From: Acidimicrobiia bacterium
GTDB lineage: Bacteria; Actinomycetota; Acidimicrobiia; UBA2766
Assembly (NCBI GenBank): GCA_038904395.1
Contig: JBCKKC010000005.1
Span: 1-52,385 of the forward strand
DNA length: 52,385 bases
Direction: 5' to 3'
Below are positions 20,304 to 46,112 of the stretch, one piece after another. The position numbers and the translations under genes were made by a program. The first letter of the stretch is position 1. The number at the start of each line of letters is the position of its first letter. The notes beneath the pieces were generated by a model. It searched no databases, was not told where the DNA came from, and saw nothing but the letters and a program-made list of their open reading frames with translations.

Positions 20304-20505
20304 AATGACCTCAAAGTAAAATGTCCGGCCTATTGCATAACCGATGTTTGGTGTACCAGAACGGAAGACGATCACGATTTCCTAATGTAACAACCGAACC
20401 TGAAAAACACCTGAACACGAGGGTCTTTCTCGTAACCATTCAGCCCCTCCTCGCAAGAGTTGTGCTACCAGGACATTTGTCCTCGCGAGCCCTGGGCTTT
20501 GGCAG

Positions 20506-24460: not shown

Positions 24461-25474
24461 CTACCTGAACGATTGCAGCACATGGTTGACGTGGTGGAAG
24501 TCTTCTTTGTCGGCTGGAATTTCGAATATGAATGTCGCCACGCCAGAGCCGACGAGATCCTCGATTAACCTGCCAACGCGCTTGTAGTCTCCGACAAAGT
24601 AAGGACAGTCGGCTTGGAAAGTTTCAAATGGTTCAACCCAGTAGCCGGCTGCAGCTTCTGAAGGCATGTTAAACAAGCGCCGTTTCCATGTCGCATCGGT
24701 ATTGGCCATTGACACTTCAACGAGCCGAGCCTCACGTTTGCCGTCCCCGAATCGCTCGTGGGCAGCCTGCCAAGCCTGCGAGTCGGACTCCCTTGTGATG
24801 ACGCCAAAATGTAGCCCAGGAACACCGGCTCTGTCTCCAGATACCAGCAGAGAAGGGGGCAGCATTTGCAGCCGGGTAGCGCCAATTCTCGCTGCAGTAT
24901 TGACCGCGGAATCTGATTCGCCTGAAACAAATATTTCCGGAGACAGCTCAGGCGGAATCGGCGGCTGCAACTGCAGTCGAAGCGTCTGATAGAACTGCCC
25001 CTCGAATGTTAACGGGCGCTGACTACCCAATAGGGCGAGCATTACGTCAGCAAACTCCGCCAGCCGGGCGTATCGCTGAGCATGATCAAGCTGGTCTCCC
25101 ACAGCCGTGTGGTCGCTCAAGGCAGTGCCAGCAATAAGATTTACAGCCACTCTGCGGCTATACAACTGGGCGAGCGATGAAACCATGCGTGCTGCGGTAA
25201 ACGGGTGCATTGTCACTGGGTTAATCGCCACGATCGGCCGTAGGCGATTACTTTCTGCCACGACGGCTGTTCCAGCAACCCAGGGATCAAGCGGAGCGCC
25301 ACTGCCTGTAAATAGGAGCATCCCGTCAAGGTCGATCTCGTCGCTGAGGGAGATGACATCACGCGTGATGGCCAAGGCGTCTCTCGCATGCTTGACCCGC
25401 GGAGCAACCGAATAGAATTGTGGGCTTGCGCGCAGGTCGGATTCAGTCTGTGTCATCGAGGAATTGTCAGTCAT
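24461..25474 (-). CDS. Luciferase-like (LLM) flavin-dependent monooxygenase
   Basis: DPW...LRPIVAINP..MHPFTAARM..L..LY.RR..VNLIAG, FEGQFY, VSGESD; start overlaps the PKS stop. Confidence 0.88.
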   Translation of the reverse strand: MTDNSSMTQTESDLRASPQFYSVAPRVKHARDALAITRDVISLSDEIDLDGMLLFTGSGAPLDPWVAGTAVVAESNRLRPIVAINPVTMHPFTAARMVSSLAQLYSRRVAVNLIAGTALSDHTAVGDQLDHAQRYARLAEFADVMLALLGSQRPLTFEGQFYQTLRLQLQPPIPPELSPEIFVSGESDSAVNTAARIGATRLQMLPPSLLVSGDRAGVPGLHFGVITRESDSQAWQAAHERFGDGKREARLVEVSMANTDATWKRRLFNMPSEAAAGYWVEPFETFQADCPYFVGDYKRVGRLIEDLVGSGVATFIFEIPADKEDFHHVNHVLQSFR

Positions 25475-28223
25475 GGCTATTGTACTCCAACTCGTTCGGT
25501 GTCTCGGCTGAGTCGATAGTCTCCACGGACTCCAGGAGGGCAAACAATTTGGCCTCGGAAGCCTCGCTCAACACCTGGCTGAGCGTTTCCGACTGTGAGG
25601 CCAGCGTGGGGGTGTCAAGAAACATTCTCATGTTGAGATCAACCTGAAATATCTCTGATAGCTCGGCAACAATTTGGCCTGCCGTCAGCGAGTTACCGCC
25701 AAGATCGAGAAACATTTCGTTCATGCCCACTTGTCGTTCGATGCCAAGATACTCGCGCCACAGGTTAGCGACGACCTTTGCGAGTGGCGCCGTTGGCGCA
25801 ATGAAATCGGCTGGCAGTGCCTTTGCGCGAGGATCATCGAGATCATGGGCAACGTGGCCCTGCGCCTGATGTACGGAGGCAGGGCGGTTAAACCAATATC
25901 GGCTGCGTTGAAATCGATATGTCGGTAACGCAACTATCATGCGTCGCGTGCTGGCGTGGAATTTTTTCCAGTCGATCTCTGCCCCAGCACTCCATATCGT
26001 TCCCAAAGCATTTAGTAGTGCTTCGGTATGGTCGGCATCGGCCACATCGGGATGGGTAGACACGATCACCCGATCTGGTCTCGTATCCTGCCGACTGATG
26101 GCCCCGGCAAGCGTACCATCGCCAATATCGACAATGATATCGGGCGCATGTTCGATCAGGGCTGCCACTGCATCGCTTGATGCAATCGCCCCCAAACTAG
26201 TGACCGTTCCTGTGCCGGCAGGAATCTCGCTCGCCAGCAACTCCCCACCGCTGGCAAGAACCAAGGGAAACTCAGGATCTTGGGTTTGCACTTGCTCCCT
26301 GGCGGAGTCCTCCATGTCCAACATCCCGATAGCGGTGGCTAAGGGGAGCAGCCCGGCAATTGACGCAGCGACCAGCTCGCCCGTGGCCGAGCCCATGACC
26401 ACCGCAGGACTGACGCCCCACTCCTTGAGGCGCTTACCAAGGCCATATTGAGCAGCAAAGCACAATGTATTTTCCAATGCGTCGCTGTGTGTGGTGGAGC
26501 GCGTAGCCTGCTCTAGCTGTGGACGGATATCAAGATGGAGAACAGATCCAGCTGATTGAGCTACTTCTTCAAGAGCGGCTTTGAATACCGTGTCGTCGAC
26601 GAACTGGTCCATGTCAACTATTGCCTGCCAATTGCAAGTGGCGGAGAAGACCAGCGCTACTCGTGGTTGGAAAAAGGCTGGTCGGCCAGTCGAATGGCGT
26701 AACGCCTCAGAGACTTGCACGCAACTCTGGTCAACGACAAACGTCCTGTGCGAGAAGTGCTTTCGGCCAACGTTGCTGGTATATGCGACGTCGGCGAGCG
26801 CATCCTCGGTGACATTCAGATGGTCGGCATAGTCATCAACAATTTGCACAAGAGCATCAGAGGAATCTGCTGAACAAGTAACAATCTGCCATGGCCGCTG
26901 GTCAGGCAGCGAACGGCGTTGAGGGGCCTCTTCGAGAATGATGTGAACATTCGTGCCACCAACACCAAACGAATTGAAAGCGGCGCGGCGTGGCAACGAG
27001 TCTGTGTCCCAGCTACGAAGTTCCGTGTTTACGGCAAGTGATCCCTTCACCCAATCAATTTGAGGATTCGCAATGGTGAAGTTGATACTGGGTGGCAGTT
27101 CTTTGTGGTGCAAGGCCAGAGCGACCTTGATTAGACCTGCAATACCCGCGGCCGCATCGAGATTGCCAATATTGGGCTTGATCGACCCAACCGCAATGGT
27201 CTGCGAGCTATCGGCATTGCGCCCGTAGGTTTCTTGCAGGGCAGCAATCTCAATGACATCGCCCATGGCAGTTCCGGTCGCGTTCGATTCGATATAGGTA
27301 ATTGTCGACGGATCAATGTCAGTAGCTTGCAGAGCTTTATTAATCACACGGGTCTGGCCATCCTTGCTGGGCGCTGCAAAACTTACCTTTGCCCCTCCAT
27401 CGTTGTTGACAGCTGAGCCCTTGATTACTGCATAGATCTGGTCTTGAGCGGCAATGGCATCATCTAATCGCTTCAGAGCCACAACGCCAACACCGTCGCC
27501 GATGAGATATCCGTTCGCATCCTTGTCGAAGGAGCGACACTGGCCATCCGGGGAAGTTGTCGAACCACGCTCGTGCATATAGCCCATCGGCCGTGGCGCC
27601 TTGATGCTCGTACCGCCAACTAGAACCAAGTCGCATTCTTGATCGAGCAAGCTATTTACGCCATGGTGCACGGCAACCGCAGATGATGAACAGTTTGATT
27701 GCATTGTAACGCTGGGCCCGGTGAGTCCCAGTTTGTAAGAAGCGCGGGTGCTGAGATTGTCCTTGTCGCTGGAAACAGCGAGGACAAAATTCCCAAATGA
27801 CTTAACTAATGATTCGTTTGGAGCAACATTGTTCAAGAAATATAGGTTCATGCCACATGCGGCATAGACACCGATCTCTCCGGTGAATTTCTCGGGATCG
27901 CACCCAGCGTCTTCGAGACACTCCCAAGCACATTCAAGGAAAAGGCGCTGTTGCGGGTCGATCACAGCCGCTTCCCGGGGGGAGTAGCCAAAAAACGTGG
28001 CATCGAATTGATCAGCACCCTCGATGCCAGCCCACGCACGAACATAACGTTGATCAGACGACTCCGATGTTGGCACCTCAGCGGCAGCTAGTTCGTCGTC
28101 TGTGACAGCGCGTACTCCTGACTTTCCATCGCGCAAAAGTTGCCACAGCCCAGTGGCACTCGGAGCCCCTGGAAATCGGCCAGACATACCAACAATTGCC
28201 ACATCAAAAGCACTCGTGCTCAT
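25467..28223 (-). CDS. Type I PKS-like protein: KS (Cys intact, both His replaced by Asn) - degenerate AT - ACP
   Basis: VAIVGMSGRFPGA, DPQQRLFLE, QSNCSSS, IESNATGT, NIGNLDAAAG, SFGVGGTN; AT has GSATGE in place of GHSxGE; ACP LGGNSL. Confidence 0.92.
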   Translation of the reverse strand: MSTSAFDVAIVGMSGRFPGAPSATGLWQLLRDGKSGVRAVTDDELAAAEVPTSESSDQRYVRAWAGIEGADQFDATFFGYSPREAAVIDPQQRLFLECAWECLEDAGCDPEKFTGEIGVYAACGMNLYFLNNVAPNESLVKSFGNFVLAVSSDKDNLSTRASYKLGLTGPSVTMQSNCSSSAVAVHHGVNSLLDQECDLVLVGGTSIKAPRPMGYMHERGSTTSPDGQCRSFDKDANGYLIGDGVGVVALKRLDDAIAAQDQIYAVIKGSAVNNDGGAKVSFAAPSKDGQTRVINKALQATDIDPSTITYIESNATGTAMGDVIEIAALQETYGRNADSSQTIAVGSIKPNIGNLDAAAGIAGLIKVALALHHKELPPSINFTIANPQIDWVKGSLAVNTELRSWDTDSLPRRAAFNSFGVGGTNVHIILEEAPQRRSLPDQRPWQIVTCSADSSDALVQIVDDYADHLNVTEDALADVAYTSNVGRKHFSHRTFVVDQSCVQVSEALRHSTGRPAFFQPRVALVFSATCNWQAIVDMDQFVDDTVFKAALEEVAQSAGSVLHLDIRPQLEQATRSTTHSDALENTLCFAAQYGLGKRLKEWGVSPAVVMGSATGELVAASIAGLLPLATAIGMLDMEDSAREQVQTQDPEFPLVLASGGELLASEIPAGTGTVTSLGAIASSDAVAALIEHAPDIIVDIGDGTLAGAISRQDTRPDRVIVSTHPDVADADHTEALLNALGTIWSAGAEIDWKKFHASTRRMIVALPTYRFQRSRYWFNRPASVHQAQGHVAHDLDDPRAKALPADFIAPTAPLAKVVANLWREYLGIERQVGMNEMFLDLGGNSLTAGQIVAELSEIFQVDLNMRMFLDTPTLASQSETLSQVLSEASEAKLFALLESVETIDSAETPNELEYNSHD

Positions 28224-28242
28224 CTCAATACCCTCCATGTTG

Positions 28243-31200
28243 CTATTTTGAATCCATCTCTTTTGCCCTGCGTTCTCGTAACAGTTCACGGCGGGGCGTT
28301 AGTTTGGTAGCTCGCTCTGATCGTGCACTCGGCCCAGCGGTTTCATCATTCGTGACGACCTGTTTAGAGGTGCGCAAACCATCGACGTAGCTGACAAGAC
28401 TCTTGCAAGTAGCGTGGTCGTAAAGGTCGACCAGCTCGAAGTCATGCCCGACAAATTCCTGCAGTCGCAGGTGCACTTCCACCAAACTGAGCGAGTTGCC
28501 GCCCAGATCAAAAAAGTTCTCGTCTGGGTTAATGTCCTCGATGCCCAAGACTTCCTGCCATATGTGCACTACTGCCATGGCGGTCGAGTCAGCGCTTCGG
28601 TTGACCTTGGCCTTGGGTGTTGCAGCGCTGGGCGATGTCATCTCCTTGAGCCTCTGCCTGCTCACCTTGCCCGTGTCGGTGCGCGGAAGACAGTCAACAA
28701 TGTAGAGAACAGGAATCATGAACTCTGGAAGATGCTGCCTTAGGTGGGATCTGATCGAGCCCAGCAAGTTCCTATCTGCAACGCCGCGCAGCGGATCATT
28801 CGTATGGCTGGGCGAAAGGGCGGCAATTTCGCCGGGCTCTTCCCACTGCAATGGCGTGGTGGGTTTTCGCGGCGAAAAACGTAGGTCCATGAATGCCCCA
28901 CTTGAGGGCACTATGTCTACATGGCAACCAATGGCCAGCGCCATCGCCCAGATCGATTCTGGATCAACCGAAACGGCCGATACAATTCGGCCAAGTTTGC
29001 TGATAACGCTATCGTCAATCGCAGCCTCTAACTGAGCCGCCAGATTGGCAGCGTCCGCAATTCGAGCATTCGGGACATCCTTAACCAGAACGGGCCGACC
29101 TCGCCGTGAAGCTATCGCTGCACGCAGGGCCGTTTCGCTGCCCAGTTCAGACCAATTGAACCGCTCTGGTACGGGCGCCGGACTCGCTTCCCCCTCGCCA
29201 CCATCGGCGCTCCCAACATGGAGGATGACGTCGTAGCGGAATCCATTCAGCTCATTATGGTGACGGCCTCGTTTGAGCAGAAATTCCACATGAGTCACAT
29301 CTGCGAGTTCCTGAGCAATCGCTTCGAAAAAGCCTCGCGATACAACCAGCTCTTCTTCTTGGGCTACCCGTTGGCCTATACGCTTCTTAGCGTCAGCCGC
29401 AGTTGCGTCCGGCGGCAGTTGACCTAACACGACCGAAGCATGGAACATCGCCAACAGATCGAGATCCCGCACATCGCCCAGGTAAATACGACCGCCAGGC
29501 GCCACGAGGGGCACGATGCGTCGAATCACTTCCACCAAGTATTCGGAGCCCGGAAAATACTGCGTAACCGAATGCAGAACGATTGTGTCAAACGACTTCT
29601 GATCCAGGCCGGACACGTTGGTGGCTGGGCGCTCGAGCACAGTGACTTGATCTGTGATACCCGCCTCTTGAAGTTGAGAGTCTACGAATGCCACGGCCTG
29701 TGCGGAAAAATCAGTTGCCACATACTTTCTAGTGTCGTTGGCCAGTGCCATAACGAGATTGCCCGTGCCGCAGCCAATCTCAAGAACATCCTGTGGTGCA
29801 AACGCACGAATGCGGGCAACGGCTTCGCCAACCCACTCACTCATTTCTGCAGCCGCAAAGGGTTCGCCCGTATAGCTGCTGCGCCACATCTCGTTTTCAC
29901 GTTTGGGTTCTGCGGCGACCTGTCCGTAGAACTCTTCGTATAGGCGTTGCCACTCCCCGACTCGATCGGCCTCAGTGCCACCTTGAGAGTGATCCAACCT
30001 TTCCAAGGAAACGACCGCTGCCACTAGCCGCATATCACCATGCGGACCAGCCGAGGCCGTAACAACTGCCTCACTCACGCCAGGATGAGCAAGTAGAGCA
30101 GCTTCAACTTCTCCGGGCTCAATGCGAAATCCACGAATCTTTATCTGTTGGTCAACTCGGCCAAGATATTCCAAGGTACCATCCGGGCGGAACCTGCCTC
30201 TGTCGCCAGTGCGAAACAGACGTTCCCCACCAGTCAGGCTAAAGGGATCTGGCACAAACTTTGTCGCCGTCAAGTCTGCACAGTCGAGATAGCCTCGGGC
30301 AAGCCCTGCACCCCCCACACAAATCTCACCTTCAAATCGAGACGGGACCGGATTCAAATCGTGGTCGAGCACATAGATACGAGTGTTGCCGATCGGCTTG
30401 CCGATCGTGCATTCAGGATCTTGCGCCGAAATCACTTCAAGTGTGACATCTGCCGAAACTTCTGCTGAGCCATAGAGGTTGATCAGAGTGCATTCCGGCA
30501 GCGTTTCCATAAAGCGAGATGCGACATCGTCATGCAGTGCTTCACCGCTCGAATGGCAATACTTCAGATGGCCCAATCGGGACGACAAATCTTCGCCGCA
30601 ATCCAGGATGCTGCGCAATAGAGACGGAACTGCAACAAGGCGAGTCACCCGATGTTCTTCGAGTAGCTTGACAAGACGAACCGGATCACGCCCAGTTGCA
30701 GGATCAACTACAACCAGAGGCGCACCCGAAACGAGTGGCCAGAAGATTTCTCCACCAGAATCGAAGAAAGGCAGAGCCGTTTTTACACAGCCCACTTCTC
30801 CTGGCGCGTATGGAAACTCTTGCATCATCCATCGTTGCCTGTTGGTGATTCCGCGGTGGAGGCCGACAACTCCGTTCGGCTTACCCGTGGATCCCGATGT
30901 ATAGATCACATAGGCAGCGTTATCGGGCCCGACACTCGATATCGGATTGTCTTGCCTCTCGTTGACGAGGTCGGGGGCAGACGGGTCGATGCAAACTAAG
31001 CCATCGAAGTTGAGTTCACTGCCCTTGGCCGTGCTGACAAGAACCACATGGGCCCCACAATTGGTCAACATCATGCTTTGTCGCTTGGGCGGATCTGACG
31101 GATCGATCGGAACGTATGCTCCTCCGGCCTTGAACACCCCAAGGATGGCGACAATGCTTTGCGCGCAGCGTTCCATTACCAGCGCAACACGCACCTCAGG

Positions 31201-34200
31201 CCCTACACCTGAGCGTTGGAGTCGATGCGCGAGCCGATTGGCGGCGGCGTTCAATTCGCCATATGTCATCGTGGCGTTTGACGCGATCAACGCCGGCGCT
31301 TCGGGCGCTCGCTTTGCCGCATCCTCAAACATCTCATGGATTGGTGGATCCGTGGAATAGGGGGCCTCAATGTCGTTCCAACCGTAAAGCATGTCGTGGC
31401 TATGGGCCACCGATATGAGCTCTAGATCTTTCACTTTGGCATCGGGCTGATCGCATGCAGTAATCAGGATGCGACGGAGCGCTTCGGCCAGGCTATGCAT
31501 GGTGGCAGGGTCGAAAAGGTCAGCGTCATACTCGAGCGTGCCAAGCAGTTCTCCCTGATGCTCACTCATGTATAGAGAGAGATCGAAATAGCACGACCGC
31601 TGCTCAACACGGACTGAATCAACCTCAAGGTCGCCCCAGTGCCCCAACGGGGCTGAGTGATTGATCGCCAAGGCTGCGAGATCTGCCTCGCCAACTCCTA
31701 GACCATCTTGGTAGGCAAACGACGCTGTCACGAGTTGCGATCGTTCCCCATTGGTGCCGCCATCGCCCCGCACGCAAGAGAGTGACTCGACAATCCGGCC
31801 AAAGGGCATGTCCGCATGGTCAGAAGCTGCCAGTACTGCCGAACGGGTTCGCTGAACGTGAGTAAGGAATGTTGGGTCATCACTGATGTCGATGGCGATG
31901 GGTAGCAAGTTCACGAGATAGCCCACGAGCGACGCAAAACGGGCCTGATTGCGACCCGAGTTCACAAATCCCAGCACAAATTCATCCTGGCCGGCGAAGC
32001 GCCCGAGTAGGGCAGCAAAAGCGCCATAGAGAACAGTCGGGATGCTGACGCTATGTTCTTTGGAAAGTGTCCGCACAGAATGGGCCACTTCAGCGTCGAT
32101 GCGAAACTGATAGTCAGCTCCACGGAAACCGCGTGTGGGCCGACGGTGATGATCGAGCGGTAGATCCAACGCCGGAGATTGGCCAATAGCATTCACCCAG
32201 AAAGTTTGAAGGTCCGCGGCCGAGTCACCGTCCAAGATCTGTTGCTGCCACTCTACAAACTCGCGGGGATGAGCATGGGCGTCCGAAGATGGCATGCCAC
32301 TATCGAGACGCGGCCCCTCATAGCGTGCTGAGAGCTCGTTCACGACTACGCCGAGCGACCAAACGTCCATGACCGTGTGGTGGGCGACAAGCAATAGCAC
32401 GTTCCGAGCGGGAGTTTGCCTGAACAACACAGCCCGAAAGAGTGAGCCACCTGCTATTTCGAACGGCCTGTATGCCTCTTCATCAAGTAAGACTTTCAGT
32501 TCAGCATCAGTACCGCCGAGTGAGTCACGGACGTCAAGATGCCACTCCTGCGAAGTTACGACCTGGTCCACGCCGCTACCGGTCGTAGTCAACGTGGTAC
32601 GCAAAGCACCATGGCTGTCAACGATGCTTTCAAGGGCGGCTGCTAACTTTTCGACATCAAGTTGGCCCGAGAAGGCGACAGCACGAGGAAGATTCAGGGT
32701 GGCAGGATCTTGAGCCACTTGAGACTGAAACCACAGCATGCGCTGGCCATATGAAAGCGGAAAACTCGCGCTTGCGTCGGCGCCTAGGTCAGGTTCCGAC
32801 GTAATCGCAGTCCGCATTGATCGACCTCCGCTCGCCACAATCACCTCGGCGAGATCTTCAATAGTGTGGTCGGTCAATATTTCTTCAAAGCTAAGCTGCA
32901 CACCTAGCGCAATCTCAACCTTGTGGCGCAATTCGATGGCCTTCAGTGAATCCAAACCTTGCAGGGCCAGCGGCTTTGTTGTGTCAACATCACAAGCAAG
33001 CACATCAGATGCGATGCTCTTCAGGCCTGCAACCACCTCAGGCCTAGATGCGAATGAGTTGGGAGCCTTTGAATTGCTTGCTTCGCGGCGCAAAGCAGTA
33101 AAGCCTGGATTGCTTCGCTCCGCTCGCAATGACGAAAGGGCCGGCATCGACGCCGGGGCTTCGGGGACGTGAATGGCTACGGAGGTGGCATCAACGTCGT
33201 TCGAGATTGTCTTGGCGACAACGCTGTCCGCCGGAAATGCCGCTAGCGTGCCGTTCGCGTAGGCCTGGCTACACATTGAGCGCCGCGTCTTGCCACTCGT
33301 TGTAATCGGTATCGACCGCGGAGGCACCACGAGCACGTGGTCAAGATCGAGGCCGTGTCCTGCTACAGCGGCTTGGCGGATTAGGCGTTCTCTACGCGCA
33401 ACGTCTTCGGGCCTAGTGTCATTACTTTCGTACATAGCGCAAATTGGAGCAGCCCCACCAGGGTCGTCGCTCACTTGAAATACGGCGACTCGACCGAGGC
33501 TCTCATCGTCACAGGCCTCCCTAATTGATGCCTCGATGTCTTCTGGGTAGTGATTTGCCCCTCGAATGATGATCACATCTTTTTGCCGACCGCATATGTA
33601 GAGGTGATCAGCGATACGAAAGCCCAAGTCGCCCGTGCGAAGATATCGTCCATTTCCGCCTGGCCCGCCCTCAAGGGTTGCGGCAAATATCTCTGCGCTC
33701 AATTCGGGTTTTCCCCAGTAGCCCTTTGCCACGCTGGCACTGCGCAGCCAGATCTCGCCGATGATGCCCTCGCCAACACGCTTTCCATCGCCTGTCACGA
33801 TGGCGATTTCCACATCAGGGATCATCATGCAACCAACAACATCCGTGCTTTGGGCATCACCAACCGCCTCAACAACCTGACGATGTGTTAGCGCTTTTGA
33901 GTCAACAGCAATGCTTGTCGGGCCGTGGGCGTCTGATTTGCCGGCTGCTAACAAAGTCCCTTCAGCGAGCCCATAACACGGCAAAAACGCCGCATGGTGA
34001 AATCCATACAGTGAAAACGTGTCGTCGAATAATTGCAGAGTTGATGCTCGTACAGGTTCCGAGCCGCTAAAGGCAACCTTCCAGCAACTCAAGTCAAGGT
34101 CTTGACCGGCGCTCAGCTGAGCCTTTGTTGCGCACAGGTCATAGGCAAAGTCGGGCCCGCCGCTCAAGGTTCCTCGATATTTACTGATTGCTTCTAGCCA

Positions 34201-34986
34201 CCGGGCAGGCTGCTCAATGAAGTGTTCCGGGCGCATTAAGACCGTGGTCACGCCTAGGTATAGAGGCAATAGGATTGTCCCAATCAGACCCATATCGTGA
34301 TAGTGCGGCAGCCAGCTTACAACAACCGTTTCCGAGTCAAGATTGAATGCAGTAGTGGCAAGACCCAAGTTGTGGAGCAGGTTTGCATGGCTGACCATCA
34401 CTCCCTTAGGCATTGAGGTCGTGCCCGATGTGTATTGTAGGTAGGCAATGTCATCGCCACACCTCACGGGCGAGACAAATTCACTAAACCCTGGCACCAC
34501 GCCAGCATCCAAATCAGAAGCAGCGACAACTGGCACGCCCAAGTCGGCCAGGGCTTTTCGGGATCTCTCACGCTGATGGTGCTCATCTGACACAATAATC
34601 AGAGAGGCGCCAGCATCAGACACGATGCTGGCAACGCTCGCTTCAAAGCGGCTGCTCAGACGAGTCGCAACGGGCACCGGGATAACGTCGGCATAGAGGC
34701 ATCCTAAGAAGGCAACTATAAAATCGACTCCGCCTTCGAAAATCAGCAGAGCACGCCCTCCGGCACTAGCACGCGACGCCAGTCGAGCAGCGAAGGCACG
34801 TGCCCGCGACACCAGCCCGGCAAACTCGATAGTTTCAGAATCGGCATCTGACACCAGGTAGCGCACAGCGATGTTGCCACCCCGTAGTCGAGCATGCTCT
34901 TCAATAGCTGCAATGATCGTCACTGGTGTTCCTGACAGCAACCCTTTCGAGTCCGCGACGGCCTCATGCCCGGCTCTAACATTCAT
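28243..34986 (-). CDS. NRPS starter: FAAL-ACP-C-A(MT)-PCP
   Basis: FAAL (LQYTSGTT, WLPHYHDMGLIG, CYGLAE); ACP GLDSL; C HHTVMD; A YTSGSTGKP; MT VLEIGCGTG inserted late in the A domain; PCP LGGNSL. Confidence 0.95.
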   Translation of the reverse strand: MNVRAGHEAVADSKGLLSGTPVTIIAAIEEHARLRGGNIAVRYLVSDADSETIEFAGLVSRARAFAARLASRASAGGRALLIFEGGVDFIVAFLGCLYADVIPVPVATRLSSRFEASVASIVSDAGASLIIVSDEHHQRERSRKALADLGVPVVAASDLDAGVVPGFSEFVSPVRCGDDIAYLQYTSGTTSMPKGVMVSHANLLHNLGLATTAFNLDSETVVVSWLPHYHDMGLIGTILLPLYLGVTTVLMRPEHFIEQPARWLEAISKYRGTLSGGPDFAYDLCATKAQLSAGQDLDLSCWKVAFSGSEPVRASTLQLFDDTFSLYGFHHAAFLPCYGLAEGTLLAAGKSDAHGPTSIAVDSKALTHRQVVEAVGDAQSTDVVGCMMIPDVEIAIVTGDGKRVGEGIIGEIWLRSASVAKGYWGKPELSAEIFAATLEGGPGGNGRYLRTGDLGFRIADHLYICGRQKDVIIIRGANHYPEDIEASIREACDDESLGRVAVFQVSDDPGGAAPICAMYESNDTRPEDVARRERLIRQAAVAGHGLDLDHVLVVPPRSIPITTSGKTRRSMCSQAYANGTLAAFPADSVVAKTISNDVDATSVAIHVPEAPASMPALSSLRAERSNPGFTALRREASNSKAPNSFASRPEVVAGLKSIASDVLACDVDTTKPLALQGLDSLKAIELRHKVEIALGVQLSFEEILTDHTIEDLAEVIVASGGRSMRTAITSEPDLGADASASFPLSYGQRMLWFQSQVAQDPATLNLPRAVAFSGQLDVEKLAAALESIVDSHGALRTTLTTTGSGVDQVVTSQEWHLDVRDSLGGTDAELKVLLDEEAYRPFEIAGGSLFRAVLFRQTPARNVLLLVAHHTVMDVWSLGVVVNELSARYEGPRLDSGMPSSDAHAHPREFVEWQQQILDGDSAADLQTFWVNAIGQSPALDLPLDHHRRPTRGFRGADYQFRIDAEVAHSVRTLSKEHSVSIPTVLYGAFAALLGRFAGQDEFVLGFVNSGRNQARFASLVGYLVNLLPIAIDISDDPTFLTHVQRTRSAVLAASDHADMPFGRIVESLSCVRGDGGTNGERSQLVTASFAYQDGLGVGEADLAALAINHSAPLGHWGDLEVDSVRVEQRSCYFDLSLYMSEHQGELLGTLEYDADLFDPATMHSLAEALRRILITACDQPDAKVKDLELISVAHSHDMLYGWNDIEAPYSTDPPIHEMFEDAAKRAPEAPALIASNATMTYGELNAAANRLAHRLQRSGVGPEVRVALVMERCAQSIVAILGVFKAGGAYVPIDPSDPPKRQSMMLTNCGAHVVLVSTAKGSELNFDGLVCIDPSAPDLVNERQDNPISSVGPDNAAYVIYTSGSTGKPNGVVGLHRGITNRQRWMMQEFPYAPGEVGCVKTALPFFDSGGEIFWPLVSGAPLVVVDPATGRDPVRLVKLLEEHRVTRLVAVPSLLRSILDCGEDLSSRLGHLKYCHSSGEALHDDVASRFMETLPECTLINLYGSAEVSADVTLEVISAQDPECTIGKPIGNTRIYVLDHDLNPVPSRFEGEICVGGAGLARGYLDCADLTATKFVPDPFSLTGGERLFRTGDRGRFRPDGTLEYLGRVDQQIKIRGFRIEPGEVEAALLAHPGVSEAVVTASAGPHGDMRLVAAVVSLERLDHSQGGTEADRVGEWQRLYEEFYGQVAAEPKRENEMWRSSYTGEPFAAAEMSEWVGEAVARIRAFAPQDVLEIGCGTGNLVMALANDTRKYVATDFSAQAVAFVDSQLQEAGITDQVTVLERPATNVSGLDQKSFDTIVLHSVTQYFPGSEYLVEVIRRIVPLVAPGGRIYLGDVRDLDLLAMFHASVVLGQLPPDATAADAKKRIGQRVAQEEELVVSRGFFEAIAQELADVTHVEFLLKRGRHHNELNGFRYDVILHVGSADGGEGEASPAPVPERFNWSELGSETALRAAIASRRGRPVLVKDVPNARIADAANLAAQLEAAIDDSVISKLGRIVSAVSVDPESIWAMALAIGCHVDIVPSSGAFMDLRFSPRKPTTPLQWEEPGEIAALSPSHTNDPLRGVADRNLLGSIRSHLRQHLPEFMIPVLYIVDCLPRTDTGKVSRQRLKEMTSPSAATPKAKVNRSADSTAMAVVHIWQEVLGIEDINPDENFFDLGGNSLSLVEVHLRLQEFVGHDFELVDLYDHATCKSLVSYVDGLRTSKQVVTNDETAGPSARSERATKLTPRRELLRERRAKEMDSK
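33063..33134. repeat. CGTC-type REP-like element inside the NRPS FAAL-ACP linker
   Basis: gaattgct...cagtaa.gcctggattgcttcgct.cgctcgcaatgacg aligns with intergenic 43154-43226. Confidence 0.85.
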
Positions 34987-35246: not shown

Positions 35247-36167
35247 TCAACGATGCTTGAGAATCGTAAGGAATTGTTCCATAGCTTCATTGTCTGGCTG
35301 CTCAGGACCGTTCCAACGAGTCTCGCCCTCCCAGTCGATCGTGCTTGGCAGTACTTGGGGAAAGAGTGGTCCACCAATTGGATCGCCTGCGCTAAGGCCG
35401 TGATTCCACAGCAGAGGCAGAACGGCGTATTGAGGCGTATATTCGACGCCGTCGCCGAGCCATCGTGACACAAACGCTCGGCGCCGCCTTTTGCCACCGG
35501 CATAGACAGCACTGTGCAGAGCCTTAGGATGAAACAGCACTATGTCTCCTGGTTGCATTTCCCACGACAGAATCTCGTCGTTAGCGATCGTTGGGAGCTC
35601 ATCAAAATCGTTGCGTTCGTCGGAATCAGCCCATCCGGGAGTAACAGGCCGGAATGATTCCACGAAACGATGTGATCCACGAGCAACACGTAGTGCGCCG
35701 TTATCGGGGCCGCACGCATCGAGGGTCATCCAGAACGAACACACCTGATATCCGTTGATTGGCCATGAACTGACGTCTTCATGCCATGGCGTACTTATTC
35801 CGACACCAGGCTCTTTGACGAAGATTTGGTCATAGAACGCACGAACAGACCGCGAACTGAACAGTTGCTGGGACAGACGAGGGAATGGTGAAAAGTAGAC
35901 CAAGTCGCGAAAGAAATCATCGACCTTCCACATGAACGCATCACCGGCAAATGCTGCTCCGAGAAGCTGCGTCGCTTGAGCAAGCTCGGTTGGCGGAGCT
36001 TTTCGGATTCGCTCGACAGCGGCATCAATTGAAGCGACGAGCTCGTCGCCTACAGCATCCTTGATCAGGATCGCTCCGTCGCGATGAAACGCCGCTATCT
36101 CACTTTCTCGCAAATGATTCTTGGGCTGATCCGGGAGGCGCGCAAACATGTCATACCTTCTTTTCAC
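35247..36167 (-). CDS. PhyH-family Fe(II)/2-oxoglutarate dioxygenase
   Basis: FHRDG, KEPG...TPWHED, NGALRVARGSH, PGDIVLFH...LHS; 4-bp overlap with the PPTase gene. Confidence 0.92.
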   Translation of the reverse strand: MKRRYDMFARLPDQPKNHLRESEIAAFHRDGAILIKDAVGDELVASIDAAVERIRKAPPTELAQATQLLGAAFAGDAFMWKVDDFFRDLVYFSPFPRLSQQLFSSRSVRAFYDQIFVKEPGVGISTPWHEDVSSWPINGYQVCSFWMTLDACGPDNGALRVARGSHRFVESFRPVTPGWADSDERNDFDELPTIANDEILSWEMQPGDIVLFHPKALHSAVYAGGKRRRRAFVSRWLGDGVEYTPQYAVLPLLWNHGLSAGDPIGGPLFPQVLPSTIDWEGETRWNGPEQPDNEAMEQFLTILKHR

Positions 36168-36910
36168 ATCGCTAGCAGTTTTGCATTTGAGTCAAGATCG
36201 ACATCAATCAAGCGAACAGAGCGGGGCGATCCTATGCAGGCCAGGTGTCCTACATATGGTTCGGGTAGGGGCAAATCGACCAGAGACACGGCCTTGGGAT
36301 CTGTTGTAAGCTCGGGCGCATGATGTAGTCCGGCTGGCTCGCCCGGCTCGGCAACCACCACTTTGTCAGGATCTGCAGCCAGACCGAGGCCAAAAGCCTT
36401 GAGCACAGCCTCCTTCTGTGTCCAAATGGAGAGCACACCACGCTCATCGTAGGCATGTTCAGGAAACTTGCGCCGACCCAGCACTGCTCTTTCAAGCGAA
36501 GCCGACCTATGATTCGAACGGCCCATGACCTCAATATCAACACCGATTTCAACCCCGGCCGCGACAGCAACAACGACCGCATTTCCCCTGCTGGAAACCG
36601 AAAAACTCACGTTCGTATCAGCAATCACATGCGGTTTACCGTGACCATCATTATCGCAATGGTTGCACTCCCGAGAAATGACTACCTTGTCGTGAGTCGT
36701 GCCTAGATATTGCGCAAGTATGAGCTGCGTAAGTGCCCTGCGCAGCGTGAAACGATCAGCGTCGAGTCGGAAATGGAATCGTTCGAGACGTTGGCGCTCG
36801 CCCGCCGTTAGTAGGGCAACCAACTCGTCCATATCGCCGCCAATAGCCCCAAACCACACATCACAGTGCGTAGCCAATAGCTCGGTAGGTCCAGAAATAA
36901 GATCAATCAT
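36164..36910 (-). CDS. Sfp-type 4'-phosphopantetheinyl transferase
   Basis: HGKP, FSVSS, IGVDIE, WTQKEAVLKAFGLGL. Confidence 0.93.
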   Translation of the reverse strand: MIDLISGPTELLATHCDVWFGAIGGDMDELVALLTAGERQRLERFHFRLDADRFTLRRALTQLILAQYLGTTHDKVVISRECNHCDNDGHGKPHVIADTNVSFSVSSRGNAVVVAVAAGVEIGVDIEVMGRSNHRSASLERAVLGRRKFPEHAYDERGVLSIWTQKEAVLKAFGLGLAADPDKVVVAEPGEPAGLHHAPELTTDPKAVSLVDLPLPEPYVGHLACIGSPRSVRLIDVDLDSNAKLLAM

Positions 36911-36946
36911 GAGAGAAAAACAAGAATGGTATCCATGAAGCCCTCG

Positions 36947-37057
36947 CGTCATCCTGAGGGAGCGCAACGAGCAATTCAAATGGATCGAACATGTCGGTTT
37001 GTCTGCGGCTGCGCCGCAGGTGGATCCTCACGGTCGCTGCGCTCCCTCAGGATGACG
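36947..37057. repeat. CGTC-type REP/REPIN-like element with 20-bp perfect terminal inverted repeats
   Basis: cgtcatcctgagggagcgca ... tgcgctccctcaggatgacg; an inverted homologue lies at 43079-43180. Confidence 0.9.
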
Positions 37058-37304: not shown

Positions 37305-40300
37305 TCAATTCTCGAGTCCAGCCACCTTGGCATTCACCCACGGCGTCCATTCCGCCACCTGTTCCATTAAGTCATAGTGGTCACTTTCGACATGAAACAC
37401 GTCAACGTTGAGACCTAGCTCCACGAGGGCCGAGTACTGGCGATTCTTCTGTTCGGGGTGACCGGCTGCACTGGCACTCACCAAGCGCACACTAACCGGA
37501 GATGCGAAAGGCTTGGGCCTGTGACCAGCCATCATGTTAAGCCAGTGCTGATAGCGATCGATCTGTGATTGGCTTCCGAGTCGGTCAAGCACGTCCAAGT
37601 CAGGGGCCACATCATCAATTACCCCGGGATCAAGATGGGTGTCCAGCAATGTGACGGCCACTTCATAGCCATGTGAAATCATCACATGTGCCACATCAAG
37701 GGCAAGGATGCCTGCCGATGACCAGCCGAGCAGTTCATAGGGTCCATCGATTGGCTGAGAACAGATCGCCTTTACGGCTTCGGGAACGAAATCTTCAATG
37801 TGACGCGTATCGGCCGACGGCGGCTTTACCCCAAAAACCTGCCTGTGTTGACCAAGTTGAACGGCGGCGGGCCAATAGGGCGTAAGAGAACCATGGGCGG
37901 GCAATACGAAAATCGGGCTGTCAGCTACTCGAGACGTCGTTTCGATGTCGCTGAGCAATGTGAGGCCTTCAGACACATAGACTCCCTGTCGGTCATGAAC
38001 GGGAGAACCGGCGCCGAATTCCGGGCGACCCGCTGACAACTTCTTGATCAGATCTGCCTGGTCTTTGATTGTCATTGCAGCGAAGAGATCGGGTAGAGAG
38101 GGAGAGACGTTGAAGGTCTTGCTCATAGCGCTACGCAGACCAATCAGAGTTAGCGAGTCACCGCCGAGTTCAAAAAAGTCATCGTCGGACCCGACAGACT
38201 CAATGGAGAGAAGTTCAACCCAAATTCGACCAACGGCACTTTCAACCTCGTCGAGAGGTTCTTGTCGAGGGATGGTCGCGTGTTCGACAGCGGCCTCAAC
38301 GGCAGGCAAGTCGTGATAGTTGACCTTGCCATTGGTCAATGTCGGGATAGCGTCGATAAACATGAACACGCTGGGCACCATGCTCAGGGGGAGATATTCA
38401 GAGAGCCAAGACCGCAGGGTCGAAGACTCTAGGGCAACGTCATCCTCAGGAACAACATAGGCAACTAGCCGTCGCGCTCCTGCATCTTCGGTAAAAGTAA
38501 TAACAACGGCGTTAGCAACTTGTGGGTGTCGCCGCAGGGCCACTTCAATCTCGAGTGGTTCTACACGCACACCGCGGATTTTTTCTTGCCTATCAATCCG
38601 TCCGATAAATTCAAGAGTTCCATCACCTCGGTAGCGAACGACGTCTCCGGTCCTATACATCCTCACGCCAGGTCTGCCATCGAACGGGTCCGGCAGGAAA
38701 CGTTGCGCTGTGTGGCCAGGCGCGCCAGCATATCCTCTAGCCACCCCGTCACCACCGATAAAGAGCTCACCGCAGGCTCCTATCGACACGGGCTGCAGGT
38801 CGCCATCGAGAACATAGCAGCGGGTATTCCTAATGGGGCATCCAATGGTGACAGACGAGCCTGGCTCGAGTCTCGATGTCGTCGACCAAATCGTCGTTTC
38901 GGTTGGGCCATACATGTTCCACACTTGAGCCCCTGTGGCAAGCAGATCATCGCAAAGGTCCCCTGCCAACGACTCACCTCCAACCAACACGCGCTTGCCA
39001 GTGCCGTTGCGCCACCCTGCATCTAAGAGAATCCGCCACATCGTGGGCACTGACTGGATCACATTGGCACCCGATGCTTCCATTTCTCCGATTGCTGATG
39101 CCGGATCGGCCATCCAATCAGATGGAGCAAGGGTCACATGTGCACCACAGGCCAAGGCTCCGAGGGTCTCCAGGATCGAGATGTCGAATGTCGGAGCTGT
39201 GAGCGAGTAGACCCGGTCGGACGGGCCTACTCCTGGCTCGAGTCTCATTGCCTCAATAAAACTATGTGCGCTCGTATGTGTGATTTGGACACCCTTGGGC
39301 TCGCCCGTTGAACCGGAAGTAAATATGACATAAGCCAAGTTGTCTGGACTCACCGCAACCGACGGATTGTTGGCCTTGGGGTCTTGTCCGTTGCCAAGCA
39401 CCTCATCCAGGCACATGCTCGTCACTCCGAGAGCAGCTTCAACGGCATCTGACCTTGATGGCACCAGCACCAAGCTAGATTGAGCGTTTGCCAGCATGGC
39501 GCTGCGCCGGGCCGCTGGAGCATTCGGAGAGAGCGGCAGCCAGGCCCCTCCTGCTTTTAAGATGGCCAGCATCGCAATAACACAGTCAATCGAGCGTTCC
39601 ATCTGAACGCCCACAACGTGCTCGGGCAAGACACCACCCGCAATCAGGTGGGTAGCCACGACGTTCGCTCGTTCATTTAGCTGACCAAATGTGAGCGTGG
39701 TTGCACCCGAGGTCACTGCAGGGTCATTGCCACGCGATAATGCTTGATCCTCGACCAGAGTGTGGATACAGCGACGCACTTCAGAGTTGTCAACTGGCCG
39801 GTTCCACACTTTTAATAGTTGGAGCGACTCATGGCGCGAAGCCGTCATGAGGCTGCGCAATGGCCGGTCCTTGAAGCGGACCATGCCCTTCAGCAGGTCT
39901 AGGTATCTCGTGACCAACAATTCAATGATTGCATCATCAAAGAGTTCGGTTGAATACTCCAAAGCACCACTCAACTCACCGCCACTCTGCTCAATCAAGA
40001 GGCTTAGATCGAATTTGGCCCCCTGTGACTCAAGCGGCAACCAAGTTGCTCCAACCGGCCCAAAGTCGAGTTCGGCTGAGGTGACATCAACGAGGCTAAA
40101 AGAAACCTGCGCTAGCGGCGAAATCGATAGGTTACGCTCCGGCGAAATCATGTCGACAATGTCTTCAAAGGGAACGCTGCGGTGCTCCAATGCTCTGAGA
40201 ACGCGACGATGCACCCCGTTCACGTTGTCTTGAACGGAGCCCGTCCGATCTAGTCTCGCCCGAATTGGCAACAGGTTGATGAAACAACCGATCGTGTGCT

Positions 40301-43226: not shown

Positions 43227-43377
43227 GGAAGGCTGGTAGCGGCCCTCGGGCCCAGAACACGTGAATGGCTACCTACTTACAAACAAAATGAGTCATCTCG
43301 CTAATAGTGTTTGGCGAGGTCGGAACTTGCGTCTCTCACGAAAGAGTGCATCTGTTGGAGTGGAGGGGACTGATACT

Positions 43378-44643
43378 GTGCCAGACAATCGCCCGGTAGC
43401 AACAATTGAAGGTAGCGCTGGACTCGACCAGGCTCTCGCGCATTGCATCAACCCGCTGATCCAGCACGCGCAAGGCTCACATTCGCGTCATCTGGGACGC
43501 TTCTATGCTGAATCATCATATGAGCAACGACGTCATGAGCCAGACGCAATAGACCTCACTTTTGGCAATCCGCACGAAATGCCTCCGGACGGTCTCATCG
43601 CTCTGTTGCAAGAGGCAGCTATTCCAAAACGGGCCAACTGGTTTTCATATCTGCGCCATCATGAACCCGCCCGACAGGCTATTGCATCGACGCTATCGGA
43701 AGAGTTCCAGGCAACGGTCACGCCCGGCCACATCGCTATGACAAATGGGGCCTTTGCCGGTCTAATGACATGCTTGCGCACCGTGTGCACACCCGGGTCG
43801 GAAGTGATCTATTTCACACCGGGATGGTTTTACTACGAAGCGATGATTCTGGCTGCTGGGGCAAGTCCGGTCGCTGTGCCAGCAGATCCTAGAACATGGC
43901 AACTCGATCTGAATTTGCTCGAGGCAAGCCTGTCAGAGAGAACGAGTGCTGTAATTATCAACACTCCGAACAATCCAACCGGTGCGATCTACAGCGACGA
44001 AACTCTCCAAGCCCTCAGTGCGATTCTTTCGAAGGCGTCAAATCGTATCGGGCGCCCGATCTATGTTCTCTCAGACGAGTCTTACAAGCGCATAGTCTTT
44101 GACGACAATACGAGTGCAAGCATCGTCGCTCATTACCCGTGGTCATTTCTCATCTACACCTTGACCAAAACACTGCTTATGCCGGGCGAGCGCATTGGCT
44201 ACCTTGCACTATCTCCGCACATGCCCGATGCTGGCGAGATGTCTGAAGCTATCACCGTTACCCAACTGATGACTGGGTGGGCTTTTCCCAACAACACATT
44301 GCAATACGCGCTGGCAGATCTTGAAACTTGGAGTGTCGATGTCGGCCCGATTCAGCGCCGACGCGATCTCATGGTCAAGGGTTTGCGCGAGTTGGGATTC
44401 GAAGTAACGCAAAGCGCTGGTACCTTCTATCTTCTTGTCCGGTCGCCCGATCATGACGATTGGGCGTATTGCGAAATGCTCGCCGAAGTTGGCCTGCTCG
44501 TTTTACCTGGCTGCGTGATGGGGGCTCCGGGCTATTTCCGTATATCACTGACAGCACCGGATGATCAGCTGCATTCAGCACTTGAGCGGCTTAAGTGCTT
44601 TGGGCTGCCCTCGCCGGAAATCGACCAGTCCAACGCCCGATGA
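43378..44643 (+). CDS. PLP-dependent aminotransferase, class I/II
   Basis: INTPNNPTG, SDESY, TLTKTLLMPGERIGY (PLP Lys), YFRISL; GTG start after GGAGGGG. Confidence 0.92.
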   Translation: MPDNRPVATIEGSAGLDQALAHCINPLIQHAQGSHSRHLGRFYAESSYEQRRHEPDAIDLTFGNPHEMPPDGLIALLQEAAIPKRANWFSYLRHHEPARQAIASTLSEEFQATVTPGHIAMTNGAFAGLMTCLRTVCTPGSEVIYFTPGWFYYEAMILAAGASPVAVPADPRTWQLDLNLLEASLSERTSAVIINTPNNPTGAIYSDETLQALSAILSKASNRIGRPIYVLSDESYKRIVFDDNTSASIVAHYPWSFLIYTLTKTLLMPGERIGYLALSPHMPDAGEMSEAITVTQLMTGWAFPNNTLQYALADLETWSVDVGPIQRRRDLMVKGLRELGFEVTQSAGTFYLLVRSPDHDDWAYCEMLAEVGLLVLPGCVMGAPGYFRISLTAPDDQLHSALERLKCFGLPSPEIDQSNAR

Positions 44644-44666: not shown

Positions 44667-46112
44667 TTGAATTCTGATGTAGAGGTTTATCTCAAGCGAG
44701 CACGAATTGCCCAACAAGCTATCGCTCATTGGGACCAAGAACTCGTTGACAACATGGTCAGGGCTGTTGCGTGGCAGAGCTATGCACCAGCAAACGTGGG
44801 TCTCCTATCTGATCTGGCCTATGAGGAAACCGGGTTAGGCGACCCGGTTGACCTCTTCGCCTTGCATCGACAGCGCGTGATTGGCACGCTGCACGATCTT
44901 GAAGATGTACAGACAATCGGCCCCATCGAAACACGACTCGCAGAGGGGCTCGTGAAATTCGCTAAACCCGTAGGCGTGATCGCGGCCGCGACGCCGGCAA
45001 CAGCTCCTTGTTCGGGAATCACCTGCAATGCCCTGCAAATGATCAAGACCCGCAATGCCGTCATTTTTAGCCCCAATCCGCGCAGCCAAGCAGCTGCGAT
45101 CAAAACTGTAGAAATATTGCGGATTGGCCTCGAAGCAGCTGGGGCGCCACCCGACCTGCTGCAGTGCCTCACACCTAGCACCCGCCAACGCTCAAGCGAG
45201 CTCATGAAAGGTGTCGACCTCGTTGTGGCCTCGGGTGGGCCGGGAACAGTCGAGCGAGCGTATACCAGTGGGACCCCCGCAATCGGAGCTGGCGTTGGCA
45301 ATCCCAGTGTCATCGTCGACGAAACCGCCGACCTGCAAGCTGCTGCCAGCATGACCGCTGCAGGCGCCGGCTACAACAACGGAACATCTTGTTCGTCTGA
45401 GAGCAATGTGCTTGTGGCCGAGGCTGTCGTAGCCGAATTCAGAGAGCTTCTGTCTGAATGTGACGCACACATTTGCAGCAGCGTCGAGTCTGAACAAGTC
45501 AGCAAGTTACTTTGGCCCGAGGGAACTGTGCTAAATCGCGATGCGGTCGGCCAACCGGCCCCTGTGCTCGCCCAAATGGCCGGCTTCCATGTAGATGTGA
45601 GTTGTCGAGTGCTGGTCGTGCAAGCTACAGACTCGTCAATTGAGAACCCTGTGTTCACGGAAAAACTCGCTCCAGTACTCACACTCGTGCCATTTCAAGA
45701 CTTTGCTGAGGCCATTCAAATAGTCAAAACGATCGGCGACAAGTCGGGCCGGGGCCACAGTTGCGGTATTCATAGCTCAGATGAGTCTCGCATCAACGAA
45801 GTGGCGCGTCACGTCGAGTTCTGTCGCTTGATCGTCAACCAATCGACAGCATTTGCCAATAGCGGAAGTCTCGGCAATGGCTTACCGTTTACGTCAGTCG
45901 TTGCTTCTGGCACATGGGGAGGCTGCGCCCAGTCTGAAAACATTACCTGGCGCCATTTCTTAAATTACACGTGGGTCTCGCGCCCAATTACTCCAACAGA
46001 ACCCGTCGAAGACCAAATTTTTGGCAAGTGGTGGCAGTCAGAGGCATACGCGGAACTGGAAGAGGTCGCCATCGCCGACACAGACCGTGAACGGAAAGTA
46101 GCACCCTCGTGA
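44667..46112 (+). CDS. CoA-acylating aldehyde dehydrogenase family protein (SauS/SucD/AdhE-N-like)
   Basis: KPVGVI, KTRNAVIFSP, GGPGTV..AYTSG.PAIGAGVGN, catalytic TSCSSE, EKLAPVL, GTWGG...SENI. Confidence 0.88.
   Translation: MNSDVEVYLKRARIAQQAIAHWDQELVDNMVRAVAWQSYAPANVGLLSDLAYEETGLGDPVDLFALHRQRVIGTLHDLEDVQTIGPIETRLAEGLVKFAKPVGVIAAATPATAPCSGITCNALQMIKTRNAVIFSPNPRSQAAAIKTVEILRIGLEAAGAPPDLLQCLTPSTRQRSSELMKGVDLVVASGGPGTVERAYTSGTPAIGAGVGNPSVIVDETADLQAAASMTAAGAGYNNGTSCSSESNVLVAEAVVAEFRELLSECDAHICSSVESEQVSKLLWPEGTVLNRDAVGQPAPVLAQMAGFHVDVSCRVLVVQATDSSIENPVFTEKLAPVLTLVPFQDFAEAIQIVKTIGDKSGRGHSCGIHSSDESRINEVARHVEFCRLIVNQSTAFANSGSLGNGLPFTSVVASGTWGGCAQSENITWRHFLNYTWVSRPITPTEPVEDQIFGKWWQSEAYAELEEVAIADTDRERKVAPS

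Follow-up and report, generated by a model that had tools for sequence, protein, structure and literature searches.

A gene on a 52,385-nucleotide stretch of DNA from an Acidimicrobiia bacterium (NCBI GenBank assembly GCA_038904395.1, contig JBCKKC010000005.1; hereafter the window) encodes a ketosynthase (KS) that keeps the nucleophilic Cys of its family and carries Asn at both positions of the catalytic His pair, followed in the same protein by the relic of an acyltransferase (AT) and by a carrier domain. It is a module without both parts that extension requires, the decarboxylation residues and the loader of the extender unit, in which the Cys and the carrier Ser are kept. On balance, we favour the view that this KS0–dead AT–carrier protein acts as a non-elongating, transacylating thioester relay in an otherwise purely non-ribosomal lipopeptide line (KS0 denotes a KS with the Cys present and the first His absent). 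As part of that reading, the relay module is reasonably likely to have descended from an ordinary cis-AT hybrid module of the KS-AT-acyl carrier protein (ACP) type.

A ketosynthase with Asn at both His positions

The gene lies on the minus strand. A mechanical open reading frame call gives 940 amino acids from GTG 28289 (25467..28289), and residue numbers below refer to this frame; subtracting 22 converts them to the 918-residue form. The start is likely ATG 28223 (gene 25467..28223, 918 amino acids), which has GGAGGG 7 nt upstream and follows the stop codon of the preceding synthetase by 19 nt; the protein read from this ATG is identical to a database form, P0002. The original prediction had placed the KS at 26930-28223 and named no strand. 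Read on the plus strand, that span is broken by stop codons, but it corresponds to the KS domain of the minus-strand frame, and the translation contains TMQSNCSSS, YIESNATGT and KPNIGNL just as then described.

Both halves of a thiolase-fold beta-ketoacyl synthase are matched nearly end to end by Pfam across the KS domain (27078..28205, minus strand): PF00109 over residues 29-278 (5.1e-69, profile positions 3-252 of 252) and PF02801 over residues 286-404 (7.7e-40, 1-118 of 119). The earlier claim that the rest of the fold is retained is borne out by these matches, and 125 solved KS chains match the protein at E <= 1e-20. The nucleophile, Cys200, sits in an NCSS motif and is preceded by Asn199 (AAC TGT, 27690..27695, with the Cys codon TGT at 27690-27692). 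Translation, alignments and codons agree on the two replacements: Asn336 (AAC, 27282..27284) stands for the His of the HGTGT motif and Asn376 (AAT, 27162..27164) for the His of the NxGH motif, and in alignments to solved KS structures the two residues lie opposite the His of HGTGT or HGTAT and that of N[IV]GH, respectively. Lys371 of the KxNxG motif is kept. Of the residues that mark an elongating Cys-His-His enzyme, the window KS thus has the Cys and neither His, and with its Cys present and the HGTG His absent it falls under the definition of KS0. The Asn codons AAC and AAT are identical in three independent DNA records, namely the window, a metagenome contig (L079) and a Nonomuraea genome; because two further records carry them at both sites, a sequencing error is unlikely.

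An acyltransferase relic between conserved linkers and a carrier

Behind the KS domain, a C-terminal extension and KS-AT linker (26697..27068, minus strand; PF16197, PF22621 and PF22336) lead into the AT relic (26025..26684, minus strand, residues 536-755), which was delimited by alignment to a KS-AT-ACP homologue, P0005. Compared with P0005, the GQG loop is lost (FPGQGAQ reads FSATCNW), GHSVGE reads GSATGE with the Ser nucleophile replaced by Ala, and approximately 125 AT residues are deleted, leaving about 220. Pfam reports no PF00698 match on the protein at E <= 0.001. A post-AT linker follows (25875..26024, minus strand), with 46% identity to the related proteins described below and a match to the end of the solved chain 4wky_A. 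The carrier domain (25587..25775, minus strand; PF00550, 9.9e-11) contains LGGNSL with Ser867 (codon 25689-25691), a Ser that is invariant in all eight aligned proteins of the family, and its nearest NCBIfam matches are thiolation (T) domains of peptide synthetases. A short helix-like tail (L-R/S-E-A-x-E-x-R/K ...; 25467-25590 on the minus strand of the window) follows the carrier in every member of the family and could serve for docking to the next module or to the flavin enzyme encoded downstream.

A source of extender units, either an AT in cis with the Ser of GHSxG or an AT gene in the cluster, is missing as well. No acyltransferase gene is present in the 52-kb window or in the related Nonomuraea cluster, where all 14 AT matches of the genome lie elsewhere, and the assembled part of the window genome (completeness, 69.8%) gives no PF00698 match. 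The dead, truncated AT and the lack of an acyltransferase gene in two clusters support the original prediction of a repurposed, non-elongating KS; the specific role, for which transacylase, gatekeeper and cyclase had been named, is an inference.

The Asn/Asn state defines a small clade

The nearest database proteins are only 41–52% identical to the window protein. Six database clusters share its layout of KS, linker and carrier without an AT recognized by Pfam, and all read NC...N...N: P0003 (soil metagenome), P0004 (named Streptomyces harbinensis), P0006, P0008 and P0014 (named Micromonospora) and P0024 (named Nonomuraea). L079, whose protein is 76% identical to P0003, likewise carries Asn/Asn. 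The state is therefore found, as the original prediction had asked, in homologues, and the closest of them do not carry His/His. The sole exception is P0009, a nested clade member of 723 amino acids that reads NC...S...H (Ser/His) and whose AT relic is almost gone (31 residues); Asn/Asn is present in 8 of the 8 clade sequences besides it (the window, P0003, P0004, P0006, P0008, P0014, P0024 and L079). A profile built from eight clade proteins gives its members 1200–1459 bits and everything else at most 924 bits among 8000 scored candidates, none of which is a further member. Cys200 and the surrounding NCSS are invariant in 9/9 members at an overall identity of about 56%.

As a background, all KS domains of 441 fetched proteins were aligned to a hidden Markov model of the clade KS, which gave 928 and a further 337 new rows. 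Cys-His-His accounts for 835 and 322 of them. Besides P0009, 60 rows are KS0-like: they have the Cys and the second His, and in place of the first His they show Q, A, N, S, E, M or G. The second His alone is lost in 5 rows. A Cys combined with replacement of both His occurs in none of the roughly 1256 other KS rows, a few of which are fragments, and is confined to the window protein and six clade relatives. The Asn before the Cys is also specific to the clade and appears once among all other rows, in a His/His domain of P0338. Across the alignment columns with at least 80% conservation in 835 Cys-His-His domains, the clade departs as a whole at only five, namely both His, D281, A224 and Pro345 of the GDP behind HGTGT; roughly half of 51 KS0 rows have lost this Pro too.

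The clade is rare in the samples on which our estimates rest (60 relatives of the window genome, 110 Nonomuraea genomes and 401 Streptomyces genomes). None of the 60 relatives has an orthologue (best match, 42% identity), a single Nonomuraea genome has one (P0024), and none was seen in the 401 Streptomyces genomes, a weak negative with two candidates per genome scored under a stricter first look. A scan of genome contigs with the clade alignment, which worked with patterns of generic KS motifs, returned 93 motif pairs in 78 loci, all His/His. Metagenome contigs scanned with P0003 gave one clade member (L079) in 80 loci, and the contig of P0003 itself was not returned. A fused Asn/Asn form was absent from the 117 new proteins of a search for longer homologues, in which long polyketide synthases (PKSs) crowd the list and make the negative a weak one. 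The 150 best hits of a whole-library profile search were giant multi-module PKSs ranked by summed scores, and they served only as KS background.

Origin within cis-AT modules and purifying selection

A quick IQ-TREE phylogeny of 103 KS rows places the nine clade sequences together (SH-aLRT 100, stem length 0.49), with the window branching first. The clade is nested in a cis-AT hybrid KS-AT-(KR)-ACP group (SH-aLRT 100; KR, ketoreductase domain) and stands apart from 14 sampled trans-AT KS0 rows. On this phylogeny, the origin of the clade lies within hybrid KS-AT-ACP modules of the cis-AT kind rather than with the trans-AT KS0 domains. P0009 falls inside the clade, unresolved beside P0004, and its nested position implies that the second site changed at least twice.

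The KS core of the window is 56% identical to that of its relatives and shows no indels, whereas the AT relic is 23% identical within the clade and varies in length from 31 to 220 residues; selection therefore holds the KS and not the AT. For the KS core of Nonomuraea and L079, the only pair with unsaturated dS, dN/dS is about 0.20 at a dS of 1.27. Pairs that include the window are saturated (pS 0.80–0.81). The low dN/dS that the original prediction had proposed as a check was thus obtained in the one pair that allows it, and relaxed selection, which would have spoken against a repurposed enzyme, is contradicted both by this value and by the contrast between KS core and AT relic. With Asn/Asn present in every clade sequence but P0009 and the KS core under purifying selection, the state is not one of random decay, in line with what had been proposed.

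Relation to described ketosynthases

Several resemblances tie the window KS to the KS0 domains of trans-AT and hybrid lines (the 'hybrid, nonelongating KS' of NaPDoS2). As described in PMC9582728 and PMC7327777, KS0 domains lack the HGTG His, often follow a non-ribosomal peptide synthetase (NRPS) module, add no extender unit and are proposed to hand the chain on; the HGTG His is treated there as the decarboxylation residue, whose loss defines KS0. As in the window, the Cys is kept, the His of HGTGT is missing and the Pro of GDP is often lost. The differences are equally clear. The window clade lies inside cis-AT hybrid KS-AT-ACP modules and not with the sampled trans-AT KS0 rows, it has an AT relic, and it replaces the second His as well, unlike the 60 other KS0-type rows. 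Moreover, the window KS is a stand-alone KS-carrier protein in a line without any other PKS part, and its gene is coupled to that of a flavin enzyme. The clade would work like KS0, and it matches the KS0 definition, yet it has a separate origin outside the trans-AT KS0 clades.

Elongating cis-AT hybrid KS-AT-ACP proteins that follow an NRPS module, such as 4mz0_A (CurL) and P0005, have the same architecture and linkers, a peptide-synthetase-like carrier and, in many cases, a fatty acyl-AMP ligase (FAAL) upstream; P0005 is 43% identical to the window protein over 696 residues. Their KS domains are Cys-His-His, however, and their ATs have the GQG and GHSxGE motifs, whereas the window has Asn/Asn, no AT nucleophile and about 125 AT residues fewer. 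The best single-domain match is 4wky_A ('Beta-ketoacyl synthase', E 1.1e-152), a solved KS without an AT that shares the SVQT.CS surroundings of the Cys and a layout of KS, linker and post-AT linker without a functional AT, but reads HGTAT and NVGH and so retains His/His.

The KSQ loading domains and chain-length factors, in which Gln replaces the Cys, likewise have a KS fold with part of the triad changed and the partial reactions separated, according to PMC7327777. Their loss is the opposite one: they have the His pair and decarboxylate but cannot hold a chain, while the window KS still has its Cys but lacks the residues for decarboxylation. Our KS background includes QHH rows, which are unrelated to the Asn/Asn clade. 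For the proposed role, a parallel is offered by aminoacyl shuttles of the CmaE/SyrC type, in which a Cys moves a thioester between carriers for tailoring on a dedicated carrier; these have an alpha/beta-hydrolase fold and are unrelated in sequence to KS. A full-text literature search, with subscription papers outside its coverage, returned nothing on a Cys-Asn-Asn KS or on this type of cluster.

A conserved lipopeptide cluster

From its domain content, the cluster around the KS gene is assigned as a lipopeptide cluster. Directly downstream lies the gene of the luciferase-like flavin monooxygenase (LLM; 24461..25474, minus strand), weakly similar to SsuD and NtaA; it starts with the ATG at 25474 and shares 8 nt with the end of the KS gene, stop codon included. 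A Nonomuraea orthologue (45% identity) occupies the same position, and the overlap of KS stop and LLM start is found in both clusters for which downstream sequence is available. Upstream is a 2247-residue synthetase of FAAL, ACP, condensation (C), adenylation (A) and T domains, with a methyltransferase (MT) between the A8 and A9 motifs (FAAL-ACP-C-A(MT)-T; 28243..34986, minus strand), which is presumed to donate the chain to the KS. Its A domain is atypical, with FDSGGE at A4 and LYGSAE against the usual NxYGPTE. The placement of the KS after an NRPS module and ahead of another carrier or C domain, typical of KS0, recurs in the window, L079 and Nonomuraea.

Farther along the minus strand lie a PhyH-family dioxygenase (35247..36167; conserved in the Nonomuraea cluster, 52% identity), a 4'-phosphopantetheinyl transferase (36164..36979) and a synthetase that begins with a CocE/NonD (S15) hydrolase domain and continues with C (HHxxxD), A, T and thioesterase (TE, GWSSAG) domains (37305..42947). 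The plus strand then carries a class I/II pyridoxal phosphate aminotransferase of the aspartate-aminotransferase-like kind (43261..44643; start codon uncertain; 47% identity to Nonomuraea), a CoA-acylating aldehyde dehydrogenase (44667..46112; 49% identity to Nonomuraea) whose closest NCBIfam model is SauS (428 bits, cut-off 600), a C-A-T module (46109..49381; 44% identity to Nonomuraea and 46% to L079) and an MFS transporter, probably an exporter (49378..50745). The tally of three C, three A and one TE domain fits a linear relay. The aminotransferase was considered as an alpha-oxoamine synthase, which as a class I/II enzyme would release the chain from its carrier, and this was rejected since its best matches are aspartate-type aminotransferases.

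Eight window proteins have reciprocal counterparts in the Nonomuraea cluster at 41–52% identity. There, one operon encodes a C-A-T module, FAAL-ACP-C-A(MT)-T, the KS-carrier protein, the LLM, a CmlA-like hydroxylase, S15-C-T and a class III aminotransferase, and an aminotransferase, an aldehyde dehydrogenase and PhyH diverge from it. L079 has C-A-T and then FAAL-ACP-C-A(MT)-T directly upstream of its KS. As a control, we inspected 156 loci around His/His KS genes: homologues of the LLM, PhyH, aldehyde dehydrogenase, aminotransferase and S15 proteins occur in none of them, and FAAL homologues are common. The S15-C fusion, with an intact GRSYLG motif in the hydrolase domain N-terminal to the C domain, is unusual in its own right and conserved, with a 41% identical Nonomuraea orthologue (L161:13788-17309, minus strand) that reads S15-C-T and lacks the A domain.

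A predicted thioester relay

The favoured reading assigns a place to every part of the line. The FAAL-ACP-C-A(MT)-T synthetase would make an N-acyl aminoacyl thioester. Insertion of a methyltransferase at the place seen here, between A8 and A9, indicates N-methylation, and the residue is therefore probably N-methylated. Cys200 of the KS would accept the chain from the upstream T domain, a step that established KS enzymology makes plausible in that acylation of the Cys is independent of the His pair. As both His and the AT are lost, no extension is expected; malonyl loading and decarboxylation would be skipped, and the chain would be handed unchanged to Ser867 of the module's own carrier. There, the translationally coupled LLM, and possibly other conserved tailoring enzymes, would act on it before the next C domain takes it over, first in C-A-T and then in S15-C-A-T-TE. 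The linear order ACP, C1, T1, KS Cys, KS-protein carrier, C2-A-T and C3-A-T-TE is the simplest in which each domain would be used once. The acyl transfer through the Cys, this order and the action of the LLM on the carrier-bound chain are inferred.

Several points weigh against such a relay. It is chemically dispensable, as the next C domain could be supplied straight from the upstream T domain, and only a need of the LLM or another enzyme for the module would explain why it is kept. All 60 other KS0-type rows have the second His; its loss is therefore no part of what is usual for KS0 and may have a different meaning. A strict Asn/Asn pair together with a clade-specific Asn before the Cys amounts to more conservation than simple loss of function predicts, while P0009, with Ser/His inside the clade, shows that the second site can do without Asn. 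The contexts inspected comprise two full clusters (window and Nonomuraea) and one partial one (L079), and with 69.8% of the window genome assembled, a trans-acting acyltransferase elsewhere is possible.

Alternative readings

The excess of conservation bears most directly on a first alternative, in which the Cys-Asn-Asn KS, its carrier and the coupled LLM form a co-evolved station and the KS does more than relay. We regard this as unlikely, though it accounts for features that a relay does not call for. The replacement is specifically Asn at both sites in 8/8 members besides P0009, a third clade-specific Asn stands beside the Cys, and loss of the second His occurs in 0/60 other KS0-type rows. 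The LLM is coupled to the KS in 2/2 clusters and absent from the 156 His/His loci, and its nearest models, SsuD and NtaA/DmoA, hydroxylate a carbon beside a heteroatom, with a match that is far below the cut-off (87 against 510 bits). The Asn pair might then form an oxyanion hole for a non-decarboxylative reaction (cyclization, or formation or cleavage of a C–N or C–C bond), or the KS might hold the thioester for a flavin-dependent step, either alpha-hydroxylation or oxidative N-dealkylation. In its fullest form, this proposal takes Cys-Asn-Asn as a functional active-site type of the thiolase fold, whose station, with its SsuD/NtaA-like LLM, would perform an undescribed on-line reaction on an N-acyl-N-methyl-aminoacyl thioester; we give it little credence as it stands. 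Such a reaction could be alpha-hydroxylation with oxidative cleavage, or bond formation without decarboxylation through the Asn-pair oxyanion hole, and the station would be part of an orphan family of lipopeptide clusters from rare actinomycetes and uncultured relatives. Against it, the conserved Asn may reflect phylogenetic inertia, since ordinary KS0 subgroups also keep a single residue (A, N and Q types recur); P0009 departs from the pattern with Ser/His; and a free intermediate could just as well be the substrate of the LLM.

A KS that still elongates is doubtful. It would require a trans-acting acyltransferase to load the carrier and the two Asn to supply the hydrogen bonds for decarboxylation. 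Precedent exists in the Cys-His-Asn triad of KAS III and chalcone synthases, in which the Asn supplies such hydrogen bonds. The KS core is otherwise intact, Lys371, Glu334 and Thr340 included, trans-served KS modules with a vestigial or missing AT exist (4wky_A is a KS with linkers, no AT and His/His), and the genome is incomplete. Even so, an acyltransferase gene is found in neither cluster, and KR, dehydratase and other ketide-processing domains are absent. Pro345 of GDP is missing, a loss shared with KS0 domains, and the joint loss of the KS His residues and the AT points to loss of extension. PMC7327777, furthermore, describes the HGTG His as required for extension, with its mutation inactivating the KS.

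It is improbable that the KS serves only as a platform for dimerization or docking, with the chain bypassing the Cys. Conservation of the linkers on both sides of the AT relic would suit such a scaffold, but Cys200 and NCSS are invariant in 9/9 members, as is the carrier Ser among the proteins aligned, and a purely structural role would not hold a nucleophile. Finally, a decaying pseudogene or an assembly error is very improbable: the sequence does come from a metagenome bin with 123 contigs, and His to Asn needs one base change per codon, but the frame is open over 918 amino acids, the same codons recur in independent records, a clade under purifying selection has preserved the state and the whole cluster is syntenic.

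Other features of the window

Three proteins of the region have best matches in sulfonate or sulfur metabolism: the LLM (SsuD), the aldehyde dehydrogenase (SauS) and the product of an adjacent cystathionine beta-synthase (CBS) gene (50951-52384, plus strand). The CBS/cysteate synthase match (514.7 bits) is just above its cut-off of 510.25, whereas those of the LLM and the dehydrogenase are below theirs. The Nonomuraea cluster region contains no equivalent of the CBS gene. These matches could be a coincidence or could point to a sulfonate building block.

Elsewhere, the window encodes in a single reading frame a 1424-residue protein (11918-16192, plus strand) with a proton-antiporter-type membrane part (PF00361/PF00662) and a full DabA (PF10070, 784 bits), in which the two subunits of a DAB inorganic-carbon pump appear to be fused. 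Three large repeat proteins look secreted: a subtilase fused to NHL repeats (218-2266, plus strand), a DUF5122 beta-propeller of 1462 residues (2531-6919, plus strand) and an NHL/SGL repeat protein of 1093 residues (17094-20375, minus strand). Across the assembled 2.0 Mb, the window KS is the only PF00109 match and PF00698 matches nothing, so the assembled 69.8% lacks the fatty-acid synthase genes (FabF/FabD). The PurK of this genome resembles actinobacterial clusters, a weak hint to its affiliation.

Implications

Genome-mining rules read a KS with an intact Cys as an extension step; here they would predict a malonate unit and draw the product wrongly. With the signature N-C...N...N and an AT relic, a module of cis-AT origin that does not extend can be flagged in a simple way. 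It also marks an orphan cluster family that combines a FAAL, an N-methylating module, the KS relay, an LLM, a fusion of a CocE/NonD hydrolase to a C domain, PhyH, an acylating aldehyde dehydrogenase and an aminotransferase, and for which our full-text literature search found no published product. More broadly, a clade that lacks both His while the rest of the KS is under selection offers a natural experiment in which acyl transfer would be separated from decarboxylation.

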